A stretch of 58,601 nt of DNA, counting the filler, from Dugesia japonica (lineage: Eukaryota), in assembly GCA_001938525.1 (NCBI GenBank). It is 5 parts of 5 records of this genome, joined end to end, with 100 filler letters (N's around TTAATTAATTAA, not from the genome) between each part and the next. Parts side by side here need not be neighbours in the genome. Positions count along the whole stretch, not along the records: positions 20,601 to 37,515 come from MQRL01498933.1; 4 more parts are not named here. One strand, 5' to 3'. The translations under genes were made by a program, and so were the position numbers. The notes beneath the pieces are model-generated. The model searched no databases. It was given only the letters and a program-made list of their open reading frames with translations, and had not been told where the DNA came from. Positions within the stretch are counted from its first letter, which is position 1, and every line of letters begins with the position of its first letter. This document shows, piece by piece, positions 6,220-48,923 of the stretch.

Positions 6220-7086
6220 ATTCTTTTGTTATAAAATTTCTGAATCTTTTATTCCAATAAATACATATCTTGGTTTATAAGTTAAATTACTTAGTTTTAC
6301 CGAATAATAATTTCCTGAATCTAAAGTTGTTTTAGAGGTAATTCTTTTTAAAAATGAAACTTGAATAGATTTATTTGTGTTAATTCTTTCCAAAAAATTT
6401 ACTTCCATTTTTGGAACTTACCTACATTCTGGGATGTGTAGTTCTAGAGTCATTAATTTTAAAGTAGCAGTTGTACCTGCATCTCAATAAAATATTAAAT
6501 TATCGTTTATTTGTCGATTACAAGTAAATTCAATCATTGTATTATATAATAATCTATTTTAGAATTGTAAAAAGCAAATAAATCTTTCAAAGGAAAATAA
6601 CCTTCAAATTTTTTTTAATTATAAAGTTTCTTTCTTTTAAAAAACCAGTATTTGCATTCCAACTAGTAACATCAAAATTATCACCATTTGCATCAGAAAT
6701 CCATCCAGATAATTGTCCAATAAATATTTTTAAAAGTTGAACTAGTTGTTATAAAATTTAATATTGTTGATGAAATTCCTAGATCATTAATTATTTCTAA
6801 ATCTGAAGATCTTAAAGTTAATCTCATTGTTTTAAATAAACTTGGAAACCAATTATTTTCTAATAATTATTTATCTTTATCTGAAACAGTTATCTCTACT
6901 TTAAAATCTTAACATTGAATTACAAATATCTAATGGATATGAAGATTGTAAAGATTGAAAAACTATATCTCCAGAAGACATAAAATTATTAATTGAACAA
7001 GATGATGGTAAAATTCTCAAAACATCATTTTTCAAAAATAAAGGTTGGAAATTAATATTATTTTCAAGATTAATTTTTGTTTCCAT
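6220..7086 (-). pseudogene. Polinton/adintovirus double-jelly-roll major capsid protein, frameshifted and 3'-truncated
   Basis: Manual translation across frameshifts: LENNWFPSLFKTMRLTL..LEIINDLGISSTILN..LSGWISD..NTGF..FEGYFPLKDLF..ELHIP..IQVSFLKR..KPRYVFIGIK, matching the motif order I recall for Maverick MCPs (NN.F..LF, G..ST, GW, PLK.LFGF, KPRYV). Confidence 0.75.
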
Positions 7087-7398
7087 TTTCTAATAATAAA
7101 AAATGTTTATTTAAATTTTACTTGTAATTGAATTTTATTTGTTATCATGTTTTTATTTCCATTTTTATTTTCATTTGTATTTTTACTTACAGTTGTATTG
7201 TTAGGTGTTGTAGTTTTTAGTGTTGTGTTTCTATTCATGTTTTTATTTATGTTTAAATTTTAATTGTTAACCATGTTTATTTTTTTAATTTATTTTAATT
7301 TTATATTTTCAAAAAAATCAACTGATAACCCTAGTAGTTATGAAATGACGGTTTCCCGACAAATTTTTATTTTTATTTACTATACACTATTTTTTCCC

Positions 7399-12206: not shown

Positions 12207-13242
12207 TCATCGATTGCATAATTGATAATATATAAGCAAGAGCCACATACTATTTCATCATTTTTAATGAGATTTAATTGACAAGTAAGATTTTATTTAA
12301 GTAATTATTTATATTTTAATTTTATTTTAGATTAATTATGAATAAAATCAAATAACAAATATGTGTTGCAACAAAAGGGGATTACTTTGATAGTGACAAA
12401 AGAAATTTGGTTGATTAAATAAATAATTTGTTTTATTTAAAAAGTAACTTTACTTTTTCAACACAGTAGTAGTATTAGATCTCGTTAAACATGATGAATT
12501 GAATTTCGGTTCTTCTTTTTAATGACAAAGAAGAATCGTTTTTATGCAGGTCCAAGTCTATTATTTAGGAATAAAAATTGCGGGCCAGATAGGCTGTTTT
12601 ACACACTAATTTTAATCCTTTTGTATTTTTTTATTTTGTTTTATCGATTTTCAAATATTAAAATTTTTTCATTTAATTTTTTCTCATCGTTAAAATTGTN
12701 NNNNNNNNNNNNNNNNNNNNNNNNNNNNNNNNNNNNNNNNNNNNNNNNNTCATCGATTGCATAATTGATAATATATAAGCAAGAGGCACATACTATTTCA
12801 TCATTTTTAATGAGATTTAATTTACAAGTAAGATTTTATTTAAGCAATTATTTATATTTTAATTTTATTTTAGATAAATTATCAATAAAATCAAATAACA
12901 TATATGTGTTGCAACAAAAGGGGATTACTTTGATAGTGACAAAAGAAATTTGGATGATTAAATAAATAATTTGTTTTATTTAAAAAGTAACTTTACTTTT
13001 TCAACACAGTAGTAGAATTAGATCTCGTTAAACATGATGAATTGAATTTCGATTCTTCTTTTTAATGACAAAGAAGAATCGTTTTAATGCAGGTCCAAGT
13101 CTATTATTTAGGAATAAAAATTGCGGACCAGATAGGCTGTTTTACACACTAATTTTAATCCTTTTGTATTTTTTTATTTTGTTTTATCGATTTTTAAATA
13201 TTAAAATTTTTTCATTTAATTTTTTCTCATCGTTAAAATTGT
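12207..13242. repeat. ~490-bp near-identical tandem duplication across an N gap (12207-12699 / 12750-13242)
   Basis: The two copies differ by only a few substitutions; probably an unmerged contig/haplotype overlap. Confidence 0.75.
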
Positions 13243-20959: not shown

Positions 20960-21300
20960 GATATTTAAATCTATGAATGATTCTTACATCCCCCTCTTCA
21001 AAGTTTTTTTTTGAATCTTTTCCACATTTCTTTCAATCATCTTGCCTTTTGAACTCTTCAGCAGGTATCGTCTTTCATGAATCTGTTTTATCACCTCTTG
21101 TAGACCTGTATATCTTTCTTTGTCTTTTGATCTGTTTTCTTCCTTGATTAGCACATCGTCTACAACTTGAAAATGTCTCTTTGTTGGTGTCAACTGTCCG
21201 GATTCTTAATTCTTTTCTCCATTATTGAAACATCTTTCTCTATATATTTTCTTACCCAATATCACTTCTGCTGGACTTATCCCCAAAGTCTTCTAGCTTG
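20960..21300 (-). mobile_element. Ty3/gypsy fragment: integrase C-terminus, PPT and LTR start
   Basis: TLGISPAEVILG..; FQVVDDVLIKEE..RYTG..VIKQIHERRYLLK..GKMIERNVEKI followed by aagagggggaTGTAAG. Confidence 0.7.
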
Positions 21301-25155: not shown

Positions 25156-26090
25156 TTTAAAACAATATGTATGCTGCTCAAATAAAATGGGTAATTCCTT
25201 TTTACTAAAACCTTTAACTAAAATTTGAATTCCGAAATCGCATTTAAAAAACTCGCATATAAAATCAAAAGAAATATGAACCGCATAACTTTAAAACTGC
25301 ACAAAAATCCACATAAAGAGACTTGAGTGTATAAGGCAATAGTTCTGAAGAATTTCAAACAATAGAAATGGATTAAAATAATTAACTATAGACAATATTT
25401 TCTATTAACCATATATTTATTTAAATTAGCTATATTTGTTAAAAGTGAATAAAAAATAAGTCTGAAATTAATTATGATTTCGAAAATAAATTATTTTTGA
25501 ACGATTCAATTGTAGATAAGTTATTACATAAGTTATTGACATTGAAAAATTAATAAAGCGCTGTGATTTATATTGTTACGCTAAAAACATTACCCAGAAG
25601 AAACAGCAGGAAAGATTAGTTCCTTGTTTGTTAGATGGCGATTCGTAGGGAAAATATGAAAAGTCGTTGAAAAATATTGAAAGGTTTCAGGCATGCTAAC
25701 GTTTGGTAGTTAAGTAAGAGAAAGTTGTGTCAAAGAATTTCAAATTTTCATTAACTATAGAAGTGAAAATGAAGATGAAGTTTATTTGAAAAGTGTTTAT
25801 TTAGTAAAATCATTGTTTACAAATCAAGATTTTACAGAGAAAAAATAGTTACAAAGATGCTAGTATATTTTGCAGATAATAAAGATTGAAGAAAATGGTG
25901 AATTTGTGGAACCAACAGAATATAAAAGAAATTGGAAAAACAATGACGTTAGTAGATCGAATAGAAAAAAAGAGATTAAGTTGATGCAGTTAGAAGTTAC
26001 GCTTAAGTTACAAGTCAAAATTATCAGAAACTTATAAATCATTGAATTAGTAGACATATGGGTTAAAATGAAGGATAAACGAATTTGGAA

Positions 26091-26257
26091 TGCTGGCAAT
26101 GTCATAAGATCGGTCATAATAAAGCAAATTGTCCGACAGAAAGTGGTAGAATGTTGGACTTGCCATAAGAAAGAACATATAAATTGAGTTTGTACTTATA
26201 AAAAATAAAACAAAATGCTTTCTTTGTAAAAAGATGGGCTATATTAGAAGGTTATGT
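26091..26257 (+). pseudogene. gag: gag nucleocapsid with three tandem CX2CX4HX4C-type zinc knuckles
   Basis: CWQCHKIGHNKANC; CWTCHKKEHIN*VC; CFLCKKMGYIRRLC (His replaced by Tyr in the third). Confidence 0.8.
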
Positions 26258-26639
26258 CAAAATCTGAGTTGTAAACAAAGTGACAATGGTGAACAGAAGA
26301 ATGCTACTCAAATTTGAAAATGAAAGGACCACTAAAATATTTGTGACTGCTACAAGGCTAGGAAACTGATATAATAGAATAAAGGCGATTGCTGATGAAA
26401 AAGTCAAAAACGATGGATATGAGGAAGTATATGAAAGTGATTTTCGAAGGCAGTATACAAAAGACAGGGCTCAACTAGCAGAGGAGTTATTTGGAGCAAT
26501 CCATTGTTAAATTAATTGAATGATCATACCTAAGAGGTTGAAGAGTGGGATAATATTGGGAAAGTTACAGAAATAATATCCAGGTTCTTAAAAACTGAAA
26601 ATTTAGGAGGGGATAGAGCTTGAAGAAGAATCTCCAGAA

Positions 26640-28610
26640 GAAAACTGCGTTTTCAACGAATCACGAACAATATTGTTTTAGGAGAATGCTATTTGGTATG
26701 GCAGTGACCCCGGGAATATTTCCGGAGATGATGACAAAGGTGGTAGAAAATAAAGAATGGAGCCGTGGTAAATCTTGATGAAATTCTCCTATTTACGAAC
26801 AATAAGGATCAGCAATATGAAATAATTCACAGAGCATTGACGAAAATAATAAAGGCTGGTTAAAACTTAATCTACAAAAGTGTCAGTTTCATCAAAGCTT
26901 AATCAAATTTCTTGTGCACATTCTAAGCAAGGATGGTGTTAGAACTTACCCGTCTAAAATAGAAACAATAAGAACATTTGGTAAACTTAACTATTTGAAA
27001 AAGTTACAAAGTTTCTTGGGAATTCGTAATTACTACTAAAGGTTTATTGAAACCTATGCGAGAAAATGAAGGATCTTAGAACAGTTATGTAATGGACCAA
27101 GCAACAAGAAATTAGAATGGATAGATGAAATAAAAGATAATTTTGAGGTTCTGAAGAATTTTCTAATGACTGCGTCAATATTGTGTTTTCCAGACATAAA
27201 CAGAGAAATTTTATTAGTTATGGGTGCCCATTTTGATATAATTAGAGGCGTATTGTCACAGAGCGATAAAGGAAAAGAAAGAATTGTTGCCTACGAGTCA
27301 TGAAAGGGGATACTGCATCACACAAAGAGTTATTGGATGTTTATTATTTGTGCATATATTTCAAACCTTACTTGTACGGCAGAAAATTTATTCTTAGGAC
27401 AGATCATAAGACTTTCATGATAATGACGAAGAAACCAATCACGTCACAATTCCAAATATAGATAAATTATTTCATTAGTCTAGATATAGTAATAGAAAAT
27501 ATAAAAGGAAATCAAAGTGGTAATGCAGATATGTTATCTAAATCAAGATGTGAAGTTACACACAGCAATGTCAAATGTCACACAAAAATGCTAAGGAAGG
27601 TAAGATTAAAACAAGAGTACTGAACACAATTGAAAAGGAAAAATAAGAGCAATTATATATTTTTGAGGAAAAACGATTTAATCAAGAAAATTAAAATTCC
27701 GGATGATAAAATACATTAAACAATAGAAGAAATACACATATTGTTATATGATGCAGGAGTTTAAAAGTTGTACGAATATATAAAAGACAAATACATTTCG
27801 AAGGATTTGTGGAGCCAAACATATGAGATAGTTCACAAATGTGAAATCTTTCAGATGACCAAAGTATTGACAATAGCAAACCAAATAGAATACAAAGAGA
27901 TTAGACGCTACGAATTTTTTGAAAACATATTCCCATATGAGAGCCAATACGGGATGCTAGTAAACAGAAAAAATACATTCTTGGAATAAAAGACCAGTTC
28001 AGTAAATATCTGATTCTTATAACATTGCCAGGACAAGATGATGAAGGAAACAATGCAAAAAGCTATTTTTGAGAAGTTGATATTGAGATGTGGATGCCCC
28101 AGAGAGATAAGACAAGATTGTGGAAAAGCTTTTGAATCCAGAGTTATGAGAAAGTTTAAATTAAATTTTGCTTTTTGAGTTTTTATCATCATAGTGCAAA
28201 TTGAAAGACAGTTTAATACAATTTGAAATTTAATTAATGCCCCACTTTAGAAGAGATGGATCACAGATTTGGCAGACTTATTTCCGGAAATAAAATTTAT
28301 AATTAACCGAAAAAAGGAGAAAACGACTGGAAAGACCAAGGTTGAAATTGTGTTTTGAAATAAAAAGGATACAGGTCAAAGAAATACAAGTTTCCAAGAG
28401 AAATAAAGAAAAATTTCGAAAGTGACTACTAATAAGGAATCAAAATTAAAAAAATTATGTCATTATGTATTTAGAAACAAGAAATGAAATTCAACACAGA
28501 TTTGTAGGTCTTCATCGAATAATTGAGAAAATTCACGAAAGACAATATGTTGTACAATAGAAAAATGGAAAGCGATTGGAGAGAAATGTAGAAAACTTAG
28601 AAAGTTTTTA
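26640..28610 (+). pseudogene. pol: pol (RT-RNase H-integrase), heavily disrupted
   Basis: Motifs as above, in RT-RH-IN order, with many stops and frameshifts. Confidence 0.85.
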
Positions 28611-28811: not shown

Positions 28812-29993
28812 TTAGTATAATATTTTCTATTTACCATCTATTTATTAAAATTACTGCTTTGTTAATAGTAAATAAAAATATGTCTGAAATTAACAGTTAT
28901 GATTTTGAAAAAAAATTATATTTAAATATTTTACTGATACTTTGCATTATCAGGTTTCTTAGTAAAGTTGGGGTTCCCCCATGGGTTTGGTGTAGAAAAA
29001 TACGGCTAGGAAAAAAACAGCCCTCAGGGGACCCTTTCAAAAATTTGGTCTCTTATTTTCTTTTGGCCAATCGGTACAAATTCCAAGTCATTTCAAGGTC
29101 CTCACTTTCTTCGCGTAGTTTCTTAGTCGCATTGACGGATCGGTTAAGAGATGAATGCCCTAAATGAGATGAAAATGGTTAACAGCTTAATAATTACTAC
29201 AGGTGAATCGTACGACATGTGGTAAAATGACAAACTTAGACAAACTAAGAGATCTTAACTAAATTAAGCAGTAAAACATTTATTAAAATTAGGACACAAA
29301 ATCACAATCAGTTTTCATTATTCGCAATAGTTTCTACATTCTCGGAATTCTCAAGACTTTCTGGCTTCTAGCTTGCTAAAGTAAGTTATTGATGGCTGCT
29401 CTTACTATAGGGGGAGCTTGTGGGTTACCATGCGAAAACTAGGTCACTAAACTTTGCGATAGGACATGCTACGAATAATAATTATGTCTTTCACCAAAAT
29501 CTCTTATTATCTCCACTACCGCTTCTATTACCGGTAAGTTGGAGCGGTCATTTAACACGCCAGCGTCCTTATTGTAGGGGTTAGTGTGGCATCCGAAAAC
29601 CACTCGCCGGTTCCGTCGGTCCCAAACTTGTTCCCAATAGATATTCACTAAAAGTAATCAAGAATAAAACTTCATTTCATCATTATGATTTCTCCAGATT
29701 TCGTTTATCGACACTTTTGAAGGTGCATTGGTTTCATTGTTAACTATCGGTGAGGGACTTCTTGTGGGTCTGCTGCTTATATGACTTGTATTTGGACTAA
29801 TTGGATCGATTTGCGAGTTACTTTCTTCATTCTCACTTGTACTTGAATATTCATTTTTGTTTTCGGTTGCGATAAAGCTCATTTTTGAAAGTGAAGAATC
29901 TATTAATACCACAGTTATAATTACATGTATACATAATCATCAACATAATTGTCTTTAACAGGTTTTACATTATCTACAGAGAATTAGTTTTAG

Positions 29994-30300
29994 CTAACAC
30001 GTCATTACCTTCGATACCTGATAGAATCTAGGCACATACATGGTTAGCTCGTTTGACACCATCCCTTCCGGCATCCTTTCATAATTTGGTGAGGCTTCCG
30101 GTAAATGTCGTTCCCTTCTTATTTGAGTGTGTTTATTTTTCTTTGATTTTGCTTTTCTGCATAGACATAGATACGCAATACCTATTCCTATTATTGCAGC
30201 GGTGAGGCTTTCAATTATTATCGTATAATCTGCTTCATTTTTGTGATTTGAGGTGTAGTAACTGGTATTTTTTCTGTAGTGGGTCTATCTAATGGTACCA
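29994..30300 (-). pseudogene. C-terminus of a type-I membrane protein (T/P-rich stalk, TM helix, cytoplasmic tail)
   Basis: PLDRPTTEKIPVTTPQIT / YTIIIESLTAAIIGIGIAYLCLC-RKAKSKKNK..PNYERM..*. Confidence 0.55.
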
Positions 30301-30446
30301 TATAATTCTCCTTTGATTTTGAATTAGATAGTACTCCTGTGCTTCCTCTTCTTTTTGGTTAGTGTTATTAGCCAATAAAGTCATTTTCATTCTTTCAATC
30401 CCGTCTAATGCTGTGCTGGCTAGCTGTTTTCCGACTTCATCCATTT

Positions 30447-30560
30447 CAGGTATTGTAGTTGTACATATTCCTAATTCCTCATCCGTTCATGCGAATATAT
30501 CTCGAAACTCTTCCAAGAGCTGTAATATTGCCGTTCGCTGTTCCTCTGTTAATGTTTCGG
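30447..30560 (-). pseudogene. Gypsy pre-RT/RT N-terminal segment, cut by a deletion
   Basis: TLTEEQRTAILQLLEEFRDIFA*TDEELGICT, matching LTxEQ..L..LLxEFxDIFA....LG.T. Confidence 0.7.
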
Positions 30561-30594
30561 GTTACAACTTTAAATGTCCTATCAATTTCATGTT

Positions 30595-30757
30595 ATGGNN
30601 NNNNNNNNNNNNNNNNNNNNNNNNNNNNNNNNNNNNNNNNNNNNNNNNNNNNNNNNNNNTAAACGGTAAACGGTAATTATCGGTTTTACCGGAAATTTTG
30701 ATTTTTTTTCGGTAAACGATATTACCAATTACCGCAAATTTTTTCCGTGGTGAATAC
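30595..30757. mobile_element. hAT-like MITE nested between protease 2 and RT (partly N)
   Basis: aacggtaa/ttaccg subterminal repeats; candidate 8-bp TSD ttcatgtt (30587) / ttcatgat (30758). Confidence 0.45.
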
Positions 30758-30779
30758 TTCATGATCATTGACATGTGTA

Positions 30780-31135
30780 TAACCTTTCAATGTTTGTAAT
30801 CGCAATGTTGAAAATTTTAATATTCCATCTTTCATCAAATCTGGCAGTATGTCAGTACCCAAAGTACATTGTCCTGGCATTTCAACAACTATCATGTTGT
30901 GTCTAATCTTGTTTTCCACATATTTTACATCACATGATAATTCCCAAAAAACTTTGAGGCTACTTTAGTTAGCCACATCTGTCGTAGTAGTCGTAGATAG
31001 TATATTTTTGTACTCTGTTATTGCGAATTCTTCAATTGATAATAATGAAATGGTTGCTCCAGTGTCCAACAACACTAGTGTGGGTCTAACATTGATTTTA
31101 ACTTGAATTGTTAGCAATGGTTCTCCACCGAAACT
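30780..31135 (-). pseudogene. Retroviral-type aspartic protease 2
   Basis: PLLTIQVKINVRPTLVLLDTGATISLLS (DTG at 31058-31066) ... QCTLGTDILPDL. Confidence 0.85.
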
Positions 31136-31439
31136 TACACACACTACATCGAATGGTTTGTTGTTCTGACCGATAACTTGTTCCCTTTCTTTCCATCTCG
31201 GTTCACGATTTTTGAATCTTGTCTAGTCTGGTCTTATCATGGTGGATTTCTAGTTCTCCGGCATCCCCAATTCTAGTTATATTGATTATAGCCACGTGAT
31301 GGTATATAATTTGGTTTATTAGTCGGTGGTTGATTCCATTTTGGTTATGGGTTTCGTCCGTTTGTCACTCCTTGGTTGATTCGTGGTTGTCGTTCAGTAT
31401 TGTTACTGTGGTTATCTCGGATAGATAATTTCCTTAAAT

Positions 31440-31680
31440 CCAATAAACAGTTTGGGCATAATCTTGGAAGGATGTCTAATCCCAATAAGCAATCGAAGGT
31501 CAATTCATCCATTATTCGCACTTTATGATATAGTTGAATTCCATCACTCTTGACCATACATATTACTTCTCCAAGTGGGGATAATTTTTATGGATTAAGG
31601 TCATACTAGCTCCGGTGTCAACGATGCCCGTTATTCATCTTCTATCCACTTTTATCTTTTTCTGTAGTAACTTTGATCTA
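31440..31680 (-). pseudogene. Retroviral-type aspartic protease 1 (small internal deletion/frameshift)
   Basis: KKIKVDRR*ITGIVDTGASMTLI (DTG at 31611-31619) ... PLGEV ... FDCLLGLDILPRL. Confidence 0.85.
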
Positions 31681-32299
31681 TGGGTGGTCATCATGCATAC
31701 GGTTTGTGTTTCCAACTTGTCATCTTCTGTGATCTGATTATTCGTTGCACCCAAACTTTGGTCAATTTTCCTCTTATCGTTAACTGATAATTGCGATACG
31801 TTGTTATCTGTTAGTAATGCAATGTTAGGTAACTGAGGTCAACCAATATATGTGGAGCCGTACATTGGACTTGGTGCCCACATTTGTGGTGGTTGATGGT
31901 TCATTGGATGCCAGCCATGTTGCGGATAGACGTTATAATACATTTGAGCGGGTGCTGAAGTGCTTTCAGCTCCGCCGAAAAGTAGCGCATACTTGATCTG
32001 TTGCAATTTACTAGTCTTCAAATACTGTTGCATTTTGTAATCCGCTTCGTATACTGTAGCAGTTTTATAACTGGGTACATTAAGCAGTCCACTGTTTTTG
32101 CCTCTATCATCGTCACTACTACTGCTACTCTCAATTTGGTTTTTAAATCTCTCTTTAAATTGATCGAAGTATGATATTTTCATTTTACTATTCCCCATTT
32201 CCTCGCATAACAATCGGAGTTGCATTACAACTTCTTTATCAGAACCTCTTATTTGTCCAGGTTTGCAGATAAATCGCTTTACCCTGTCGATATCTTTTG

Positions 32300-33454
32300 A
32301 GTGACTGTTGAGTACCATCGTTTCAGCTAAGAATGGAAATATCCCGGTTATCATTTTCCACTTCACTTTCTTCTCCCTTTTGTAAATGTCAAAGCAAGCG
32401 AATACTTGTGTGATTACTACCCGTGCTACTGAGATTATCAACATAACTCCTAATAATCCTGCGATAGCTTGACCGAATACTATGAATCTTCCCCACATTT
32501 TCCTCATGACGTTTTCGGTAGCATTTTGGAAATTATTAGCTAATAATAGTGCATCATAATTGAAACAACCGTTTATGTTTGATCCACTAGTTAACTGTAC
32601 GATGTAAGACAGAATCTGCATTCTCCTGACAGAAAACAACATATATTATCGTACATTCTCTAAGTCTTCTCTGCTGTAAATACCTTCTTTGCTTATATCG
32701 ATTGAAGTGAATTTCATCCCTCCATTTAACCATAACATCGAAAATTTCCGAGGTGCGAGTCCTACTGCGATATGTTGAGGGTATCTTATTCATGATCTAT
32801 TTGATAGGACGTACTGGGGTCCAAATACATTGGAGCAATTTCTGATGTTTGGTCGGTAGCCAAGAGGTGATATTATTCTAGTGATTGGTTGTATGTACCG
32901 CTTCTCATTTTTATGTATAACCTCCAGTTCATTGTAACAATGTTTCGGGTTGGATGAGAATTTGGCATCAATGGCTTTACATTGTTATAGGTACATAACT
33001 TCTCTCACTATTCTTCCAAATTGTCCTTTTTCGAGTGGAAGCAGTGGGGTTACACTGTTTGAATTTGTAACCGCCATGGCTAATTTTGTTTTCAATATTT
33101 CCTTGTTTAACGTGCAATCGTTTTGGATTAGGTCATGGTACATTCCTGCATCCTATTTAATAGGTTATTAATTTTATTAGATATGTAACTATGGTAACCA
33201 CAGTAGAATATGAAGGTCTTTACGGTTACTATACATTCTCGAACCTGGACTTTATAATAATCCGATTCTTGATAGAGGTGGTATATTGAGTTATTCCTGA
33301 CGGAAATTTTTTCCGGGTTTGCATCTGGGCACTCTTCGGTGTCTATTAATGAGAACACATCTTTCCCTACTTGCATACCGTTGCACTTATATGTAAGGAT
33401 AGTTTCTTCTCTGCCCATTAATAGGAATAATAGCAATATAGTAGTTGTTAATGA
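32300..33454 (-). pseudogene. Chuvirus-like (class III fusion) envelope glycoprotein, internally deleted
   Basis: Signal-like TTILLLFLLMG; ILTYKC..FSLIDTEEC..LYQESDY..RECIVTVKTFIFYCGYHSY; REVMYL*QCKAI..HCYNELEV..YIQPITRII; GIYSREDL..MLFS; KMWGRFIVFGQAIAGLLGVMLII (TM), collinear with chuviral G motifs as I recall them. Confidence 0.85.
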
Positions 33455-36400
33455 TTGCCATGAATTCCGCTGAAGTAACTGTGTCCATCCATTTTCAATT
33501 TCATTTAACTGATGTCTTACGATTCTAATTACTCTGGTTGCGTTATCATGTGATGGTTCTGGTTTGGGGCATATTGACTCAATAAATTTCTTCGACCCTC
33601 CGTACTGTTTTATTAGTGGAATGATTTTGTTCTGTATTAATTCTACGATGGGCAATTTGCTGAAGATAAAGTTTTTTGACGGCTTGCTTCTGGGTATGTA
33701 AAGGTGTGTTTGGTTGATTAGATGAGCGATAGCTACAACTATTCTTTTTTTAGTTGGTTTTTCTTGTAATAATTCGTCCAACACTCCCTCTAAATTCTCA
33801 CTTCTTCCATGCCCCGTACCCTTACTGGCAGGAAATTTCTTGATTGCTGATTCTAATAACTTTGCTAACGGCCTGAGACTGTCAGATAACTGAAATTTTT
33901 CAATCTATATTTTGAGCTCTGAATACAAGATTAATAGTAGCTGACGTATTACTAATTCAGTTGGTATGTCATCATCCGTAGTGTTACCACTATATCGTTC
34001 TTGCAGTAATGCTGCCAGGTGCTTAGTTTGATTATTTACTGAAGTTGCTAATCTTTTTTGCTTTAGGGCTTCTTCTACTTCTGGGTAGCCAGGCGGTTTC
34101 GCTCAATGTCTACCACGGCCTTTTTGTTCCGTAATCGTTTTCGTATTCTTTTTCGTTTGTACCGGTTCTGGGACTTTCTCTTTTTCTGTTTCTATCGGGT
34201 TCTCCGTCTCTAATAGGTGGTTTTGATGCATTAATTCATTCATTACTGATGACGGGAACTAATTAGCAATTTTGCTCAATATTGGTGACAATGGCTGTTC
34301 TTCCAGTATATTGTCTTCACCTAGATCTACCTTACTTGCCTCGTATTTGTTATTTTCGCCTTTTATTGCTTGTGGGGAATATCTGGAAAGGGTAATTCGT
34401 TTTCACTCGCTGAGAGCTCATTCATTGATGGTGATCTGAATATTTCCNNNNNNNNNNNNNNNNNNNNNNNNNNNNNNNNNNNNNNNNNNNNNNNNGTTTC
34501 TGTACTCCCGGATTGGTCAGTTGTGGGTCTTAGTATTTGGCTGGCAGCTAATTTTGTACGTTGCTTGAAGGCTTTTAATTTACCTGAAGCTTTTTCCATT
34601 ACATGTCGGGTTTTGTCAGCTGCTTTAAAGGGATTAGCATCTTTTTGTATGAGGGTACACCCTGGATCCAAAATAATCCACAGGGTATTTGGCTTAATTA
34701 CATCTATTTTCATTAGCCCAATCGGTGTAGTTTACTTGACTACTCCGCCGTCATCCAGGACTCTGTGTGGTAGATTAAATGGCAACTTTCCCGTATTTGT
34801 TTTACTGTGTTATAAACCGGTGCTTTAACTGGAATTTTGTCCCCATCAGGGCCAATTATTCTGAACTTAATGTGTAATGACGTAGATTGTTTCATTTCTG
34901 TTTTTCTCCATTTGACCAAAATCTTATTGAACTGAATCGGATTCCATACATTTGATACTATGATTGCCAAAATCAATCTTCGTAATTTCCTTCCACTGCT
35001 AAATTTTGTTGCATGGCTATTTTGGATCTTTGTATGATTTCTGGCTTCATTAATTTATCCCTGACTAATAGTTTAATTAGTTTTGGTAGGTTATCTTCGG
35101 GTTTTTTATCCTTTACTGAGGTGTTGGTTAAAGCTGCTACCATTTCTACTTGCTGTTTCCCTTGTTCTTGTTTGGTAAGTCTTGCCCTCTTAAATATTAT
35201 TGGGTGTATTTCCTCCATATAGTATTCAGCTATTTCCCGGGCTCTTTGTTTCCATATTTCTTCCGGGACTCGTGGTCGTCTTACTTTTCATCTTTGGTTG
35301 TTACATAAATTTTTTGCTTAGTGCCTGGCCACACTCCCAGATATTTAATCAGTAACCTCATGTGTTCTTGCTCAGTTTCCTGATTATAGAACAGTACAAT
35401 GTGCTTTTCCTGTATAAGTGGTAACCGTACTGATTCCTCGTCATCGTGAGTTTTTGCTTATTCATGAATTTCATGATTCTTTTCCTTAGTTTGGCCCAAG
35501 GGTCATTAATTTGTATATGAAACTGTATTTCGCTTTTGTTCGGAAATCTGATAACTATAGGAACCTCTAACTAACATTTTAGTGGCTTTATAAAGTATTT
35601 CGTCCATTAATTCCTATGGCATTCGGCTTATGGCTCGTAACTGGTTTAGTTGCATGATTAAGTGTATGATTCTTTCGTCTCGTAGTAGTTCTAAGTGTTC
35701 GTGGAGAGTCAGCAATATTTTCATTATCACGCGTGCCAACGTTCCCCATCATTTATTATCCTACCAATGCTCAATGTTTATCTCCACTTGTCTTCATCGA
35801 TTTCTTCGAATAACTTTCCGCTGTTTATCTCTTTTTCGTACAGGTCCTCTAACTGTTGCGTCACCTCTTCTTTAGGTTTTAATACGTCTTGGGTGTATTC
35901 GTCGAGGTTTTGTATTCGTAAATAGGTAATTTCTCCCGGCCCCAGTCCAAGATCCATGACATGTTGCTTCCCTTCGAACTTGATTGGGAACCTTAAATAA
36001 TCACTGGTGATTTCATTCCCTCTTTGTACTCTTGCTATATCTAATGATTCTATAATTTCTTTTAAGTCCTTAGCTTCTGTGTTGTTAAATTGGGGTATGT
36101 GTATCAGGATCAGTTCCGGTTTCATCTTAGGATTCGTACTTTGGGTTTTATATTCTATGGTGACTTTGAAGTACTTTCCTTTTGAACCTCCATTGATTGA
36201 GCCGATATATGGCCTATTACCTTATCCTATTTGTAACGTTCTTCTCTTGGGATACTAGTATAATTTGATAAATCCATTAGTAAATTCATAGCTTTCCAAA
36301 ACGTCAATAGGGGTAGCTTCTCTTGGAAATAACAAACATCGGTGATTATCCTGGCTATCAGTTCTGTTTGCGTGTAGCTGAAAAACAGCAAATTCTTGCT

Positions 36401-36895
36401 ACCAGGGTCGCAATTTGGGTTTAATTATTTGTTCCGGCCTTTCCTCCTTCTCTTCATCTGACATGCCGGGCGTTACTTCGTCGTTATTACTCCGGACCAT
36501 ATTTACATGTGACTTGCTTTCGCTATGTTTTTATGAGGCGTTCATTTTCCACTGGAAAAATATCTTGTAAATATAATTTCATCATGTTAAATATAAGTAG
36601 ATCCGTGTCTAGCATTTCGGTATCGGGATTTTTGTCGTCATCTTGCGTGGCGTTAGTTTGATATCCGTGGTCTCTCATGGTTTAATGTCGTATAGAAAAA
36701 TGTGGTCTTCCTTGTTAGCTTGTATTATAATCGTTGCTCCTGCCTGCATCTTATATGTCTTGAGCCATTTCGGCTATATCCATTTCTTGATCGGTTTCAC
36801 CCCATGCCGGATAGTTAGTCCTTCGAGACCTATTATGTCAACTTTTTTTATTACTTCTTTCTTGTTGAGGAGGCTTACTCGGATTGAGTAATTTG
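33455..36895 (-). pseudogene. Upstream polyprotein region of unknown domains, including a SUMO/ubiquitin-like segment (~34670-34874)
   Basis: Chain of same-strand ORF fragments (35778-36125, 34973-35218, 34740-34976, 34363-34713, 33128-33784) broken by single stops or frameshifts. Confidence 0.6.
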
Positions 36896-36899
36896 ATAT

Positions 36900-37515
36900 A
36901 GTTGAGGTTATTGTTTAACAAGAAAAGAACTGTTAGCTATTTATTATTTCACTCAACACTTCAATCATTATTTGTATGGTAAACAATTTATTCTTCGAAC
37001 GGACCATAAGGCGATTACTTTTATGTTATCTACAAAAAAGCTGATTACTTCACAATTCCAGACATGGATAAACTTCTTAAGCAGTTTAGATATTAAGATG
37101 GAATATATAAAGAGAATTTTACATGCAAACGCTGATTCATTATCTCAACAATCATGTACAACTTGTTCCCAGTGTAAAATGAGTCATCCACAAGCTAAAT
37201 CAAGTTAAAAACTCGTATCTTGACATTAATGACTGATAATGTTGGAAAAGAATGGCAAGATGGAGTTCAANAAATAGAAGAAATAAGAAAAGCAAATCGG
37301 AAAAACTAGAGGGGGTTAATTTTAGTCGGTGGAAGATATATTAAGAACAAAAGATAATAAAATATGGATACCAGAAAGAGAGTTGAATTAATTAAAAAAA
37401 ACTCATTTTATTTTGTGTCATGCTGGATGTGAAAAACTAAAATTATATATTAAAACTAATTTTGATATGAAAAATTTAGCAAGCTTTGTGAAAGAAATTA
37501 TTGATGGATGTGAAG
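36900..37515 (+). mobile_element. pol: Ty3/gypsy pol fragment (RNase H C-terminus to integrase zinc-binding region)
   Basis: GYCLTRKELLAIYYFTQHFNHYLYGKQFILRTDHK...HANADSLS; THFILCHAGCEKL...GCE. Confidence 0.85.
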
Positions 37516-42239: not shown

Positions 42240-42490
42240 GAGTCTTTAATTTAAATATACTCTATTAAATTTTAAATTTCTTATAGTATGATCTTTTTCT
42301 TACATTCTCTTTTTTAAAAATTTTTTTAATTTCTTTTACATTTCTTGCCTTCTGAATTCTTCAACAGGTATCGTCTTTCATGACTTTGTTTTATCGTCTC
42401 AAACGGGCCTCAAATCTTTCTGTCTTTTGATCAACCTTCTACCTTGATTAAAACTCCGTTGTCAGCTAAAAAATATCTCTTTGTTGGTGT
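42240..42490 (-). mobile_element. Ty3/gypsy integrase C-terminus/PPT fragment
   Basis: Homologous to 20984-21190 (VLIKVE..RFEA..KVMKDDTC; aaaaaagagaaTGTAAG). Confidence 0.6.
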
Positions 42491-43089
42491 CATATCAATG
42501 GTATATTGTAGTAAATTGTAGTCAATAGTTTAATTTTTTNNNNNNNNNNNNNNNNNNNNNNNNNNNNNNNNNNNNNNNNNNNNNNNNNNTTTTTTCGGCG
42601 TACATTATTTGCAACGATAGTTTCAATTACTGGTCTTTTATTTATTGTTGATGTTGTTTTGATTTTTTGTTGAGGGTTGTCAACCACTTCCTTTAATGTA
42701 TAATTGGCATCGTCGTTCACTTCAGACAACACATTCATTGCATGATTTTTTTGATGATTCTTCAATTGATTGTTTCTTGCTTATCACATCATTTACAGTT
42801 GTTAGTGCTGCTTAACTTTGCAAATGAAAGTCTAAATTGTGATTACATCAATTTCATTTATCGAGCTATTTCTTTCAATAATAAAAAATTTTAATTTTTA
42901 AGGTATTGGTGGAATGTTATCTAGCATCAATTTCTCACGAGTTTTAATTTTACCACAGTTGTTTCATCAAATTTATCGTGTTCTTTACTTGACTTGTAAG
43001 TACAAACCGAATATCTAATTAAATATTTNGTATACTAGAAGTAAATGGGGCCACACCCATTTATTTCACGATCAGAAAATTCTAACTTG

Positions 43090-47100: not shown

Positions 47101-48923
47101 TTAACTACACACACATCACCATGTTGATTCTATTTAGGATAACTCTTATAAATTATGATTTCTACTACATTTAACCCCACCCTTTAAATTTCAGTTGGAA
47201 TATGGAGTATAAATGGGAAATGCTCTTCGATTGCCGAACCAACCGTACAGTTTTTAAACGCTATAAGAATCTTTATAGCCGAGATGAGGGAGTTTTTGCT
47301 GACCGCTCCAATTTACCGGCTGAGGAGGCCGAGGAGGAAAGGCAGTGGGACGCTACCAAGCACCACGCCTTCTATGACTGGAAAGGTCCCAATCGAGCAA
47401 GCGCTGTCTATCATGCGGTCACCAGTACACAGGTAGGCGCAATTGGAGAACTGCAAATCATTCGAGATTGGCAGGAAGGTCCTTATGCAGTTGGTATTAC
47501 TACCAACCAGCTACCACCTTTTACCAATCTAAGTGCATTCGTACAAAATCATTTATGGAATATTCAAAATTCAGAAAAGGGAAGTAGTTCAGAGAACGTT
47601 CCAGATGTCACCCATAATGTAACCCTAACCTAATTAGCATTATGACCTTGAAATAGTTGTAAAAAAACTTTCTTGTCATAATTAAAATTTTTTTTTGTTA
47701 CATTTATTTACTAATTTATTCTTGCCTTAATAAATGAAGTAGTGAGCAACCATCTTCTAATACGGTTTGTCATTGCGGAAGTTCGTTTCCTTTACTTATT
47801 GACGTCATTTTATTTTATAGTGCACTCTTCACTGAACCGGTCAACAGCTCCTACGAAAAAGGTGAGAGAAAAGAGCGAGGACCTAGAAATGACCTGGGAC
47901 GTTTACAAATTAGCTAAGCGTCGTTGGGAGGCAGATACCATTACTGTGGAAAGCAAGGTGCGCCGGTACAAAAATAAGTGCATAGCGTTTAGAAAGAAAG
48001 CCGAGGCCACGCATGAACAAGAGCGGCTATGGAAAATTCAAGTAGTCTTTTGCCGAGATCATCTGGTTACTCCACGACAGTGAAAATAAACTGGTGTCCG
48101 ATATTTTGACTTTAAAGAAGGCCATGCCACTTGAGCCGCTGATGATCGATAAGGGCATGCAATCTTCACGGCCCTGACCTTTTATGAGATTTTAGTTTTG
48201 CAAATAAAATGCTTTTTGATTTATATTAACTTGCTTTCCAGTCGTTTATGTTGATTTTCAGAGTTTTCTTTTTAACTAAAGATTAATGGTGATCGGATCA
48301 ACTTTTAATTTTAATTTGTTTTAGTGCCACGAATCCAGTTACCCATCAGTTTGCGTAGGTGTCATCGTCTGATCAAAAAGTAGCTTCTAGAACGCCACGC
48401 TAAGCGACAAAACGAAAGAGCATTGTTACGACACTTGACCCAGAGAAATCGCCTCATTAAGAAACTTGACCTAATCGTCAAAAAGCTGAGTGAAATAGCC
48501 GAGAAGACCAAATAACTACTCACGCATGAAATCAAATTCTTAGAACAATATATTGCGGATTTGGCTAACCGGCTAGAACAAGAGACATGGACTCGCTGGA
48601 ATAGCGAGGATGATGAACCCGCTTTTGGATTCTCATCTGAAGAGCCTACCCAGTGGTTAGACCCGGGTGCTCTCAATTTCATGTGATTAATTAGTTATAA
48701 ATTTTTGTATAGAATCATGTTCATTTAATTTACAAATAACTATAAAGGGAAAATAGTGAACTCGAAACAAAGGTAGACGAGTGTGTACCTCAAATAAATG
48801 ATGGGGGTAAACCGCTCTTTACTGAAAATCTAATTAGGGACATTAGATAAATTCTTGAAGGGGTCCCCTAAGGGATGATTTTTCCCCAGCCGGAAGTTTT
48901 CTAAAACTATCTCATGGGGAACC
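44200..48923. mobile_element. Unclassified decayed multi-ORF element
   Basis: GC-richer block with convergent and divergent ORF remnants (+ ending ~45110; - ~45300-47000; + spliced ~47200-48900); right end GGGGAACC followed by TTAA. Confidence 0.35.

Follow-up and report, generated by a model that had tools for sequence, protein, structure and literature searches.

Two retropepsin domains in a decayed Burro-like Ty3/gypsy element of Dugesia japonica and multiple proteases in related polyproteins

Introduction

Burro (GYPSM1) elements are giant planarian Ty3/gypsy elements, the single polyprotein of which includes env, in frame, after gag and before pol (PMC6431247). The locus reported here was found in a stretch of 58,601 nucleotides, filler included, of the Dugesia japonica assembly GCA_001938525.1, and this whole stretch is called the window below. 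Like Burro as described in that text (PMC6431247), the locus and its relatives have a glycoprotein of mononegavirus-like type and, upstream of env, putative ubiquitin/SUMO-like and BCL2-like domains; ankyrins are present in some relatives. One protease is named in the text of that description (PMC6431247), whereas two, here called PR1 and PR2, are present at this locus and up to seven in its relatives. The locus further differs from Burro, as far as the latter's text goes, in that no BIR or MATH Pfam domains were found in the frames of the window, and in that this broken copy is devoid of gag, RT, integrase and LTRs.

Also described are GAG-ENV-POL errantiviruses with an env of the HSV/gB type, which occur in flatworms, nematodes and bryozoans (PMC13524379). 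They share gene order and glycoprotein class with the locus, and a visual comparison suggests that their listed Schmidtea env sequences are similar; the word protease appears once in the main text of that report and in none of seven supplement files, and multiple proteases are not mentioned there (PMC13524379). The element Anakin and arthropod insertions of Jingchuvirales glycoproteins likewise show a chuvirus-type glycoprotein beside LTR-retrotransposon sequence, but Anakin belongs to BEL/Pao, the others are mostly fragments, and no in-frame glycoprotein-protease-pol polyprotein is described in the text of that report (10.1101/2022.06.22.497255). The element type is already known. No report of multiple proteases in LTR elements was found in the literature searched, although the original Burro descriptions or figures may show more than one protease box.

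LTR elements and retroviruses are commonly described as having one protease, which is homodimeric and is activated by Gag-Pol assembly. Several proteases per polyprotein are found in positive-strand RNA viruses, e.g., the papain-like and main proteases of coronaviruses and the tandem leader proteases of closteroviruses. The analogy with these viruses would be functional, with accessory proteases releasing particular modules from a very large polyprotein, but their enzymes are unrelated cysteine proteases and there is no homology. Pepsin-like bilobed enzymes and the engineered single-chain HIV-1 protease likewise have two retropepsin-fold domains per chain; in contrast, the domains in a model of relative P0035 are not packed as one enzyme, and the number and spacing of the domains vary among the relatives.

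The window copy is dead, and what makes it of value is the family to which it leads. The presence of two to seven retropepsins of two classes, catalytically intact by motif, bears on the question of how Pol is freed and packaged when env lies between gag and pol, and provides a natural series for studying the choice of dimer partners by retropepsins and the step from a homodimer to the two-lobed pepsin. If the wider proposal offered below is true, these would be reverse-transcribing elements with divided, multi-protease processing akin to that in large RNA viruses.

Anatomy of the Decayed Element

The locus holds the decayed remains of a Ty3/gypsy element with internal deletions, a dead copy that yields no product (Table 1). 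It is assigned to the Burro-like gag-env-pol type by its layout. The GC content over its span is 33-41% as compared with ~22% over most of the window, and its minus (coding) strand is A-rich. No LTR pair was found for it. The pol profile had no minus-strand match to RT, RNase H or integrase, and most of pol is deleted in this copy. Capsid and knuckle profiles also remained empty on the minus strand, which bears out the sequence-only reading that no gag is recognizable elsewhere in the element. An RNase H fragment of another element (36900-37163, plus strand) is located at the 5' edge of the copy and may mark the site of gag loss; the truncation of the 5' end by this fragment can explain why gag is missing.

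Table 1. Features of the decayed element, in positions of the window.
Feature	Position	Strand	Basis
Whole decayed Burro-like Ty3/gypsy element	29500..36900 (ends approximate)	-	GC content and A-rich strand
Ubiquitin-like module 1 (weak)	35406..35567	-	Best match, relatives' ubiquitin-like profile, iE 0.004
Ubiquitin-like module 2 (very weak)	34770..34925	-	Second-best match, same ubiquitin-like profile, iE 0.21
Putative Bcl-2-like domain upstream of glycoprotein	33554..33790	-	Relatives' pre-glycoprotein profile, iE 5.7e-5
Internal signal-like segment and glycoprotein N-part	33134..33448	-	PF24664 positions 6-108, E 3e-15
Glycoprotein C-part with membrane anchor	32379..33143	-	PF24664 positions 329-579, E 5.7e-40
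Glycoprotein cytoplasmic tail and linker	31665..32378	-	Translation, in frame with PR1 start
PR1 retropepsin, canonical-like, frameshifting deletion of ~24 codons and stop	31459..31664	-	Profiles, motifs
Low-complexity N/R/Q/G-rich spacer	31125..31430	-	~115 residues, no capsid/knuckle match
PR2 full-length retropepsin, canonical-like, one stop	30821..31111	-	Pfam RVP, relatives' profile
Assembly gap (N) directly after PR2	30599..30659	.	Linkage across gap rests on assembly
Remnant of pre-RT segment	30433..30582	-	phmmer iE 5e-4 to L001 residues 2059-2111
Hydrophobic segment followed by basic residues, like relatives' C-terminal membrane anchor	30141..30227	-	By eye, translation

The two weak ubiquitin-like matches are colinear, and their spacing resembles that of the two modules in relatives P0031, P0035, P0036 and P0037. 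The Bcl-2-like region was matched again in a second profile search (iE 0.005), and the corresponding part of P0036 matches Pfam Bcl-2 (E 0.0015). Its model is of low confidence (pLDDT 44); the top Foldseek rows are mostly members of the Bcl-2 family at E-values of only 0.6-0.9, and comparison of this low-confidence model with BAK1 gave a Z of 6.0 and an rmsd of 3.8 over 115 aligned residues.

The glycoprotein is of the mononegavirus/chuvirus fusion type, with profile positions ~110-329 deleted in this copy. Its C-terminal part shares one frame with the start of PR1, i.e., env is in frame upstream of the protease. The first part of the tail and linker matches relatives P0013 and P0014. Atlas searches with the tail and with the Bcl-2-like part gave no match above 0.82, and neither viral contigs nor prokaryote genomes had a match to the alignment of the glycoprotein. 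Downstream of PR2, ~100 nt before the gap (30660-30760) are off the reading frame and perhaps represent a small insertion. The profile of the relatives' tail did not match the putative C-terminal anchor segment.

The Two Retropepsins at the Locus

Two divergent retropepsin domains had been read from the sequence, ~550 nt apart. Both are real; they are located on the minus strand at the positions claimed, both match Pfam RVP, and their catalytic Asp codons are 553 nt apart. PR2 matches Pfam RVP with an E-value of 4e-6, above the curated cut-off, and the N-terminal half of PR1 with 8e-4, just under it. A protease profile made from the relatives only scored 43.9 bits for PR2 (iE 6.5e-15) and 23.6 and 17.2 bits for the halves of PR1, whilst codon shuffling of the region, repeated 100 times, gave a top score of 3.7 bits. 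This control rules out a misread protease motif.

PR1 is marked by GIVDTG (31628-31611) and LLGLDIL (31488-31468), and PR2 by VLLDTG (31075-31058) and TLGTDIL (30865-30845), all on the minus strand. PR1 is broken by a frameshift and a stop, a point missed in the earlier reading. It has both the D-[ST]-G and the hydrophobic-G-x-D motif, but a deletion has shortened their spacing to 131 nt as compared with 65-72 residues in 40 domains of relatives; thus, ~24 codons are missing, with a frameshift. In the full-length PR2, which has one stop, these motifs are 67 codons apart, a normal spacing. PR1 shares 39-42% identity with the RT-proximal protease of P0031, and PR2 33.6% with that of P0037. The retropepsin fold was modeled for both domains of P0035, and the models resemble Ddi1 and the XMRV protease (TM ~0.72).

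Public contigs are identical to the window at 30760-31207 and at 31195-32571, which rules out a simple assembly artefact for either protease half, and no contig among the matches listed bridges the whole PR1-PR2 pair. Weak searches for PR2 relatives gave none among proteins of 339-2,000 aa (323 candidates) and none that could be confirmed among 77 pattern matches in metagenome contigs. Regarding expression of the window copy, 42 reads from approximately one quarter of one RNA run aligned, none of them reaching 95% identity.

Proteases in Related Polyproteins

A search of 1.84 billion representatives for relatives gave 17 matches, 15 of which were taken on; longer ones were obtained by cluster look-up, a further search and a metagenome scan. 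Thirteen relatives are open from the glycoprotein to RT, and in 11 of these RT is preceded by at least two proteases (9 of 11 if the near-copy pairs P0025/P0041 and P0040/P0042 are each counted once), a count that leans high because one search query itself held two proteases. A further protease follows the integrase in 7 of the 12 relatives that pass it. The maximum is found in P0033, with seven proteases in 4,844 aa. In the first search, 5 of 11 matches with a glycoprotein and a protease show two or more proteases, and several of the others are fragments. Thus, most relatives carry several proteases in unbroken frames, and the presence of two can be regarded as a feature of the family. The sequence-only reading had proposed that single proteases in other members would mark the locus as a chimera of two elements; most relatives contradict this, but P0017, P0020 and P0024 do have a single protease only. 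The existence of these members means that the extra proteases are not required. None of the relatives found is an intact member of the sub-lineage to which the window copy belongs.

The catalytic Asp is kept in all 47 complete domains of the relatives, as DTG in 43, DSG in three and DTA in one, a count without fragments and without the duplicates P0015 and P0016. The sole DTA is found in an extra protease of P0037 (residues 1957-2055), which is a possible weakened or regulatory copy. In each of the four sister pairs, conservation is higher in the extra protease than in the spacer next to it (92/76, 76/39, 52/25 and 44/27%).

RT, RNase H and integrase are present in the relatives in Ty3/gypsy order, and most long relatives show hydrophobic peaks on both sides of Pol. 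A second module, probably membrane-anchored, follows the integrase in P0020, P0025, P0031, P0033, P0035, P0037, P0038, P0040, P0042 and L001, and it has no convincing Pfam family; L001 seems to hold an extra copy of it between its proteases. Separate open reading frames with a match to RNase T/DEDD exonucleases are located 3' of the polyprotein in L001 (10617-12107; E 1.4e-5) and L002 (12085-13473; E 0.0011). P0020, a single-protease member that also has the membrane tail, is annotated in its source as hypothetical and assigned to a metagenome bin of Flavobacteriaceae, yet it is a full gag-env-pol retroelement polyprotein and probably represents animal DNA in that bin. In sequence searches of the PDB, P0005 had no match, and the best 60 of 267 rows for P0036 were all on its ankyrin region.

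Origin of the Pair

Two classes of proteases are defined here: canonical for the RT-proximal ones, and accessory for the extras before RT or after integrase. They were told apart in 37 of 37 leave-lineage-out profile tests. A tree that included the C-termini placed 32 accessory domains on one side of a branch (99/75) and the canonical ones opposite, a split that was not resolved in a tree from a shorter alignment. The classes differ at the C-terminus, and two C-terminal strands are present in the modeled canonical domain only. As judged from their sequences, the extra proteases of the relatives are shown to be a distinct accessory class that keeps the catalytic Asp.

PR1 and PR2 do not belong to this accessory class, both being located on the canonical side of the branch. 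Their profile margins toward the canonical class, +7.4 and +6.6 bits, respectively, are small and similar to those of the single-protease lineages, whereas the 23 placed accessory domains are all at -8.4 bits or lower. The glycoprotein of the window is sister to the fragment P0013 (100/98) and stands apart from all multi-protease relatives in a midpoint-rooted tree without an outgroup; P0013, the closest relative, ends inside its first protease. Given the position of the glycoprotein and the canonical side taken by both proteases, the window pair is not the canonical-plus-accessory pair of the relatives. The window lineage probably doubled its protease separately, by duplication or capture of a canonical one. 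Comparison of the phylogeny of PR1 and PR2, as the sequence-only reading had suggested, gave a divided answer: they are sisters in one tree (78/67) but not in another, and the AU test did not decide between the two (p 0.47).

Alternatively, the pair could be a one-off chimera, in which a Burro-like front half reaching to PR1 was joined to the nucleocapsid-like linker and PR2 of another element, an event that would have nothing to do with the several proteases carried by the relatives. This is unlikely, albeit deserving of attention. A chimera would be consistent with the canonical-like nature of both proteases, with the nucleocapsid-like composition of the spacer, with the several other deletions in the copy and with the grouping of PR1 with the canonical set of P0031, P0035 and P0037 (89/90), a group outside which the window glycoprotein falls. 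However, diverged contigs of the same organism cover PR1, spacer and PR2, and one of 472 nt, carrying 72 differences, links PR2 with 96 nt of the spacer; no contig of another copy among the matches listed spans PR1 to PR2. Summed contig depth, which is not copy number, is similar in the two protease bins (943/917 in X1 and 664/606 in X6), and at the spacer the same measure is ~124-150 from diverged contigs vs. ~20 from exact-match contigs. Moreover, base composition is even across the junctions, sisterhood of PR1 and PR2 is not rejected by the tree test, and the downstream remnants look like those of the same family. The reads lean toward a family trait.

Processing of the Polyprotein

The intact form of these elements would be one polyprotein consisting of Gag, accessory domains, a signal, the glycoprotein and its anchor, one or more proteases, RT-RNase H-integrase and a second membrane-anchored tail. 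As predicted from hydropathy, signal and anchor would separate Pol from Gag, and Pol would form a cytosolic loop held at the membrane at both ends. Since Pol would thus be cut off from Gag and held at the membrane, activation of the protease presumably cannot just follow from the assembly of Gag. In the relatives, extra proteases are located behind the glycoprotein anchor and before the tail; L001 and P0033 have additional hydrophobic segments between the accessory and canonical proteases.

The reading that we favor, with somewhat more confidence than doubt, is that each extra protease works as a homodimer of its own with its own share of the processing, and that the window lineage arrived at such a layout on its own, through duplication or capture of a canonical protease. 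The protease behind the glycoprotein would free Pol from the glycoprotein tail and may trim this tail, whilst the RT-proximal protease would perform the usual maturation of Pol and Gag. Of the two ideas raised in the sequence-only reading, a dedicated protease for the accessory/glycoprotein half is, accordingly worded, a plausible one and is preferred here, with the qualification that a protease predicted to be cytosolic could reach only the tail of the glycoprotein and not its ectodomain. A wider proposal is offered tentatively and could well prove wrong: Burro-like elements may have left the one-protease rule by means of an accessory class, with one to six copies per polyprotein beside membrane anchors, that frees Pol and trims the glycoprotein tail, and the window lineage may have evolved the same solution again from a canonical protease.

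The extra proteases might also be redundant passengers, i.e., a self-excising protease cassette that is easily duplicated and is kept for its own excision or for dosage. The copy number of 1 to 7, the shifts in position between lineages and the existence of single-protease members would all fit such a cassette, as would the finding that, in each of the four sister pairs, the accessory domains diverge faster than RT, the glycoprotein and the canonical protease. Yet, redundant copies would hardly be expected to form one accessory class with its own C-terminal signature, common to all multi-protease relatives, and none of the relatives has a duplicate of the canonical type; passengers are, on this evidence, rather unlikely.

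The other idea of the sequence-only reading, a tethered dimer, is not favored over separate homodimers. It would have the protease domains fold together as one pepsin-like enzyme, the activation of which would be independent of concentration, and we regard it as improbable. Some inter-protease spacers are indeed short (32-76 aa), and a two-chain model that pairs the accessory domain of P0035 with its canonical one gave weak support for a heterodimer (score 0.38; best of three controls 0.00). The runs of this model agree in at least 73% of the contacts and the partner pLDDT is at least 69. Of 78 solved complexes, 51 passed the mark used, as did 2 of 108 mismatches; the passes at 0.60 or under comprise only 5 of the 78 solved complexes but all 4 passing mismatches of 180. 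The likeness to solved retropepsin dimers can explain this weak support. In the single-chain model of P0035, by contrast, each domain is folded but the pair is unpacked (pTM 0.41; alignment of only 10 sequences), with an rmsd of 8-9 Å to the single-chain HIV-1 protease. Furthermore, pre-RT counts are often odd (three in L001 and five in P0033), spacers extend up to 420 aa and contain zinc fingers, ankyrins or hydrophobic segments, and some copies are located more than 1,000 aa away, beyond the integrase.

The Spacer and the Position of Gag

The spacer between PR1 and PR2, which contains the motif RGYNQYN at 31296-31276 (minus strand), is N/R/Q/G-rich as had been claimed, with a share of 0.44 over 80 residues. 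The 21 inter-protease spacers of relatives all fall below this value (0.15-0.30), and the nucleocapsid regions of the seven relatives with a full gag end reach 0.45-0.56 in their best 80 residues. No DNA-level duplication was detected between the neighbourhoods of PR1 and PR2. C2H2 fingers are found in 5 of the 21 spacers of relatives, which makes a nucleic-acid-binding linker a fair guess for the window spacer as well; it is possibly such a linker.

The sequence-only reading had further taken the spacer as the remnant of a gag, in the order G-PR1-gag-PR2-RT. This order is not supported: the knuckles are N-terminal to the glycoprotein in 8 of the 8 relatives that have them and the spacer has no Pfam, capsid-profile or knuckle match; of the remnant itself, the nucleocapsid-like composition is what stands. 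A Ty3 capsid match, below the curated cut-off, is likewise N-terminal in P0036 (E 3.5e-4). That the spacer is a leftover of gag, in the order env-PR1-gag-PR2-RT, is very improbable: it would agree with its composition, with the lack of a gag upstream in the window and with the ENV-GAG-POL elements with a short gag that are reported from two mites (PMC13524379), but the capsid or knuckle between env and pol that marks such elements is not found at this locus, although a capsid may have been deleted, gag is also N-terminal in Burro as described (PMC6431247), and the cut 5' end offers another explanation for its absence.

Other Features in the Window

A separate decayed gypsy element is located on the plus strand at 26082-28160. 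It has three knuckle-profile matches (26082-26272), RT (26629-27333), RNase H (27321-27644) and a trace of integrase near 28044-28160. A very weak match to the protease profile is present at 7026-7250 on the minus strand (iE 0.2). At 47175-47633 on the plus strand, the end of an open reading frame has a weak tubulin-like match (Misato segment II; E 0.005) and is possibly a host exon. A direct repeat of 300 nt with 97% identity (12207-12506 and 12750-13049) surrounds an N gap and may be an assembly duplicate. Another repeat, dispersed and of ~79% identity, is found at 21007-21192 and 42310-42492.
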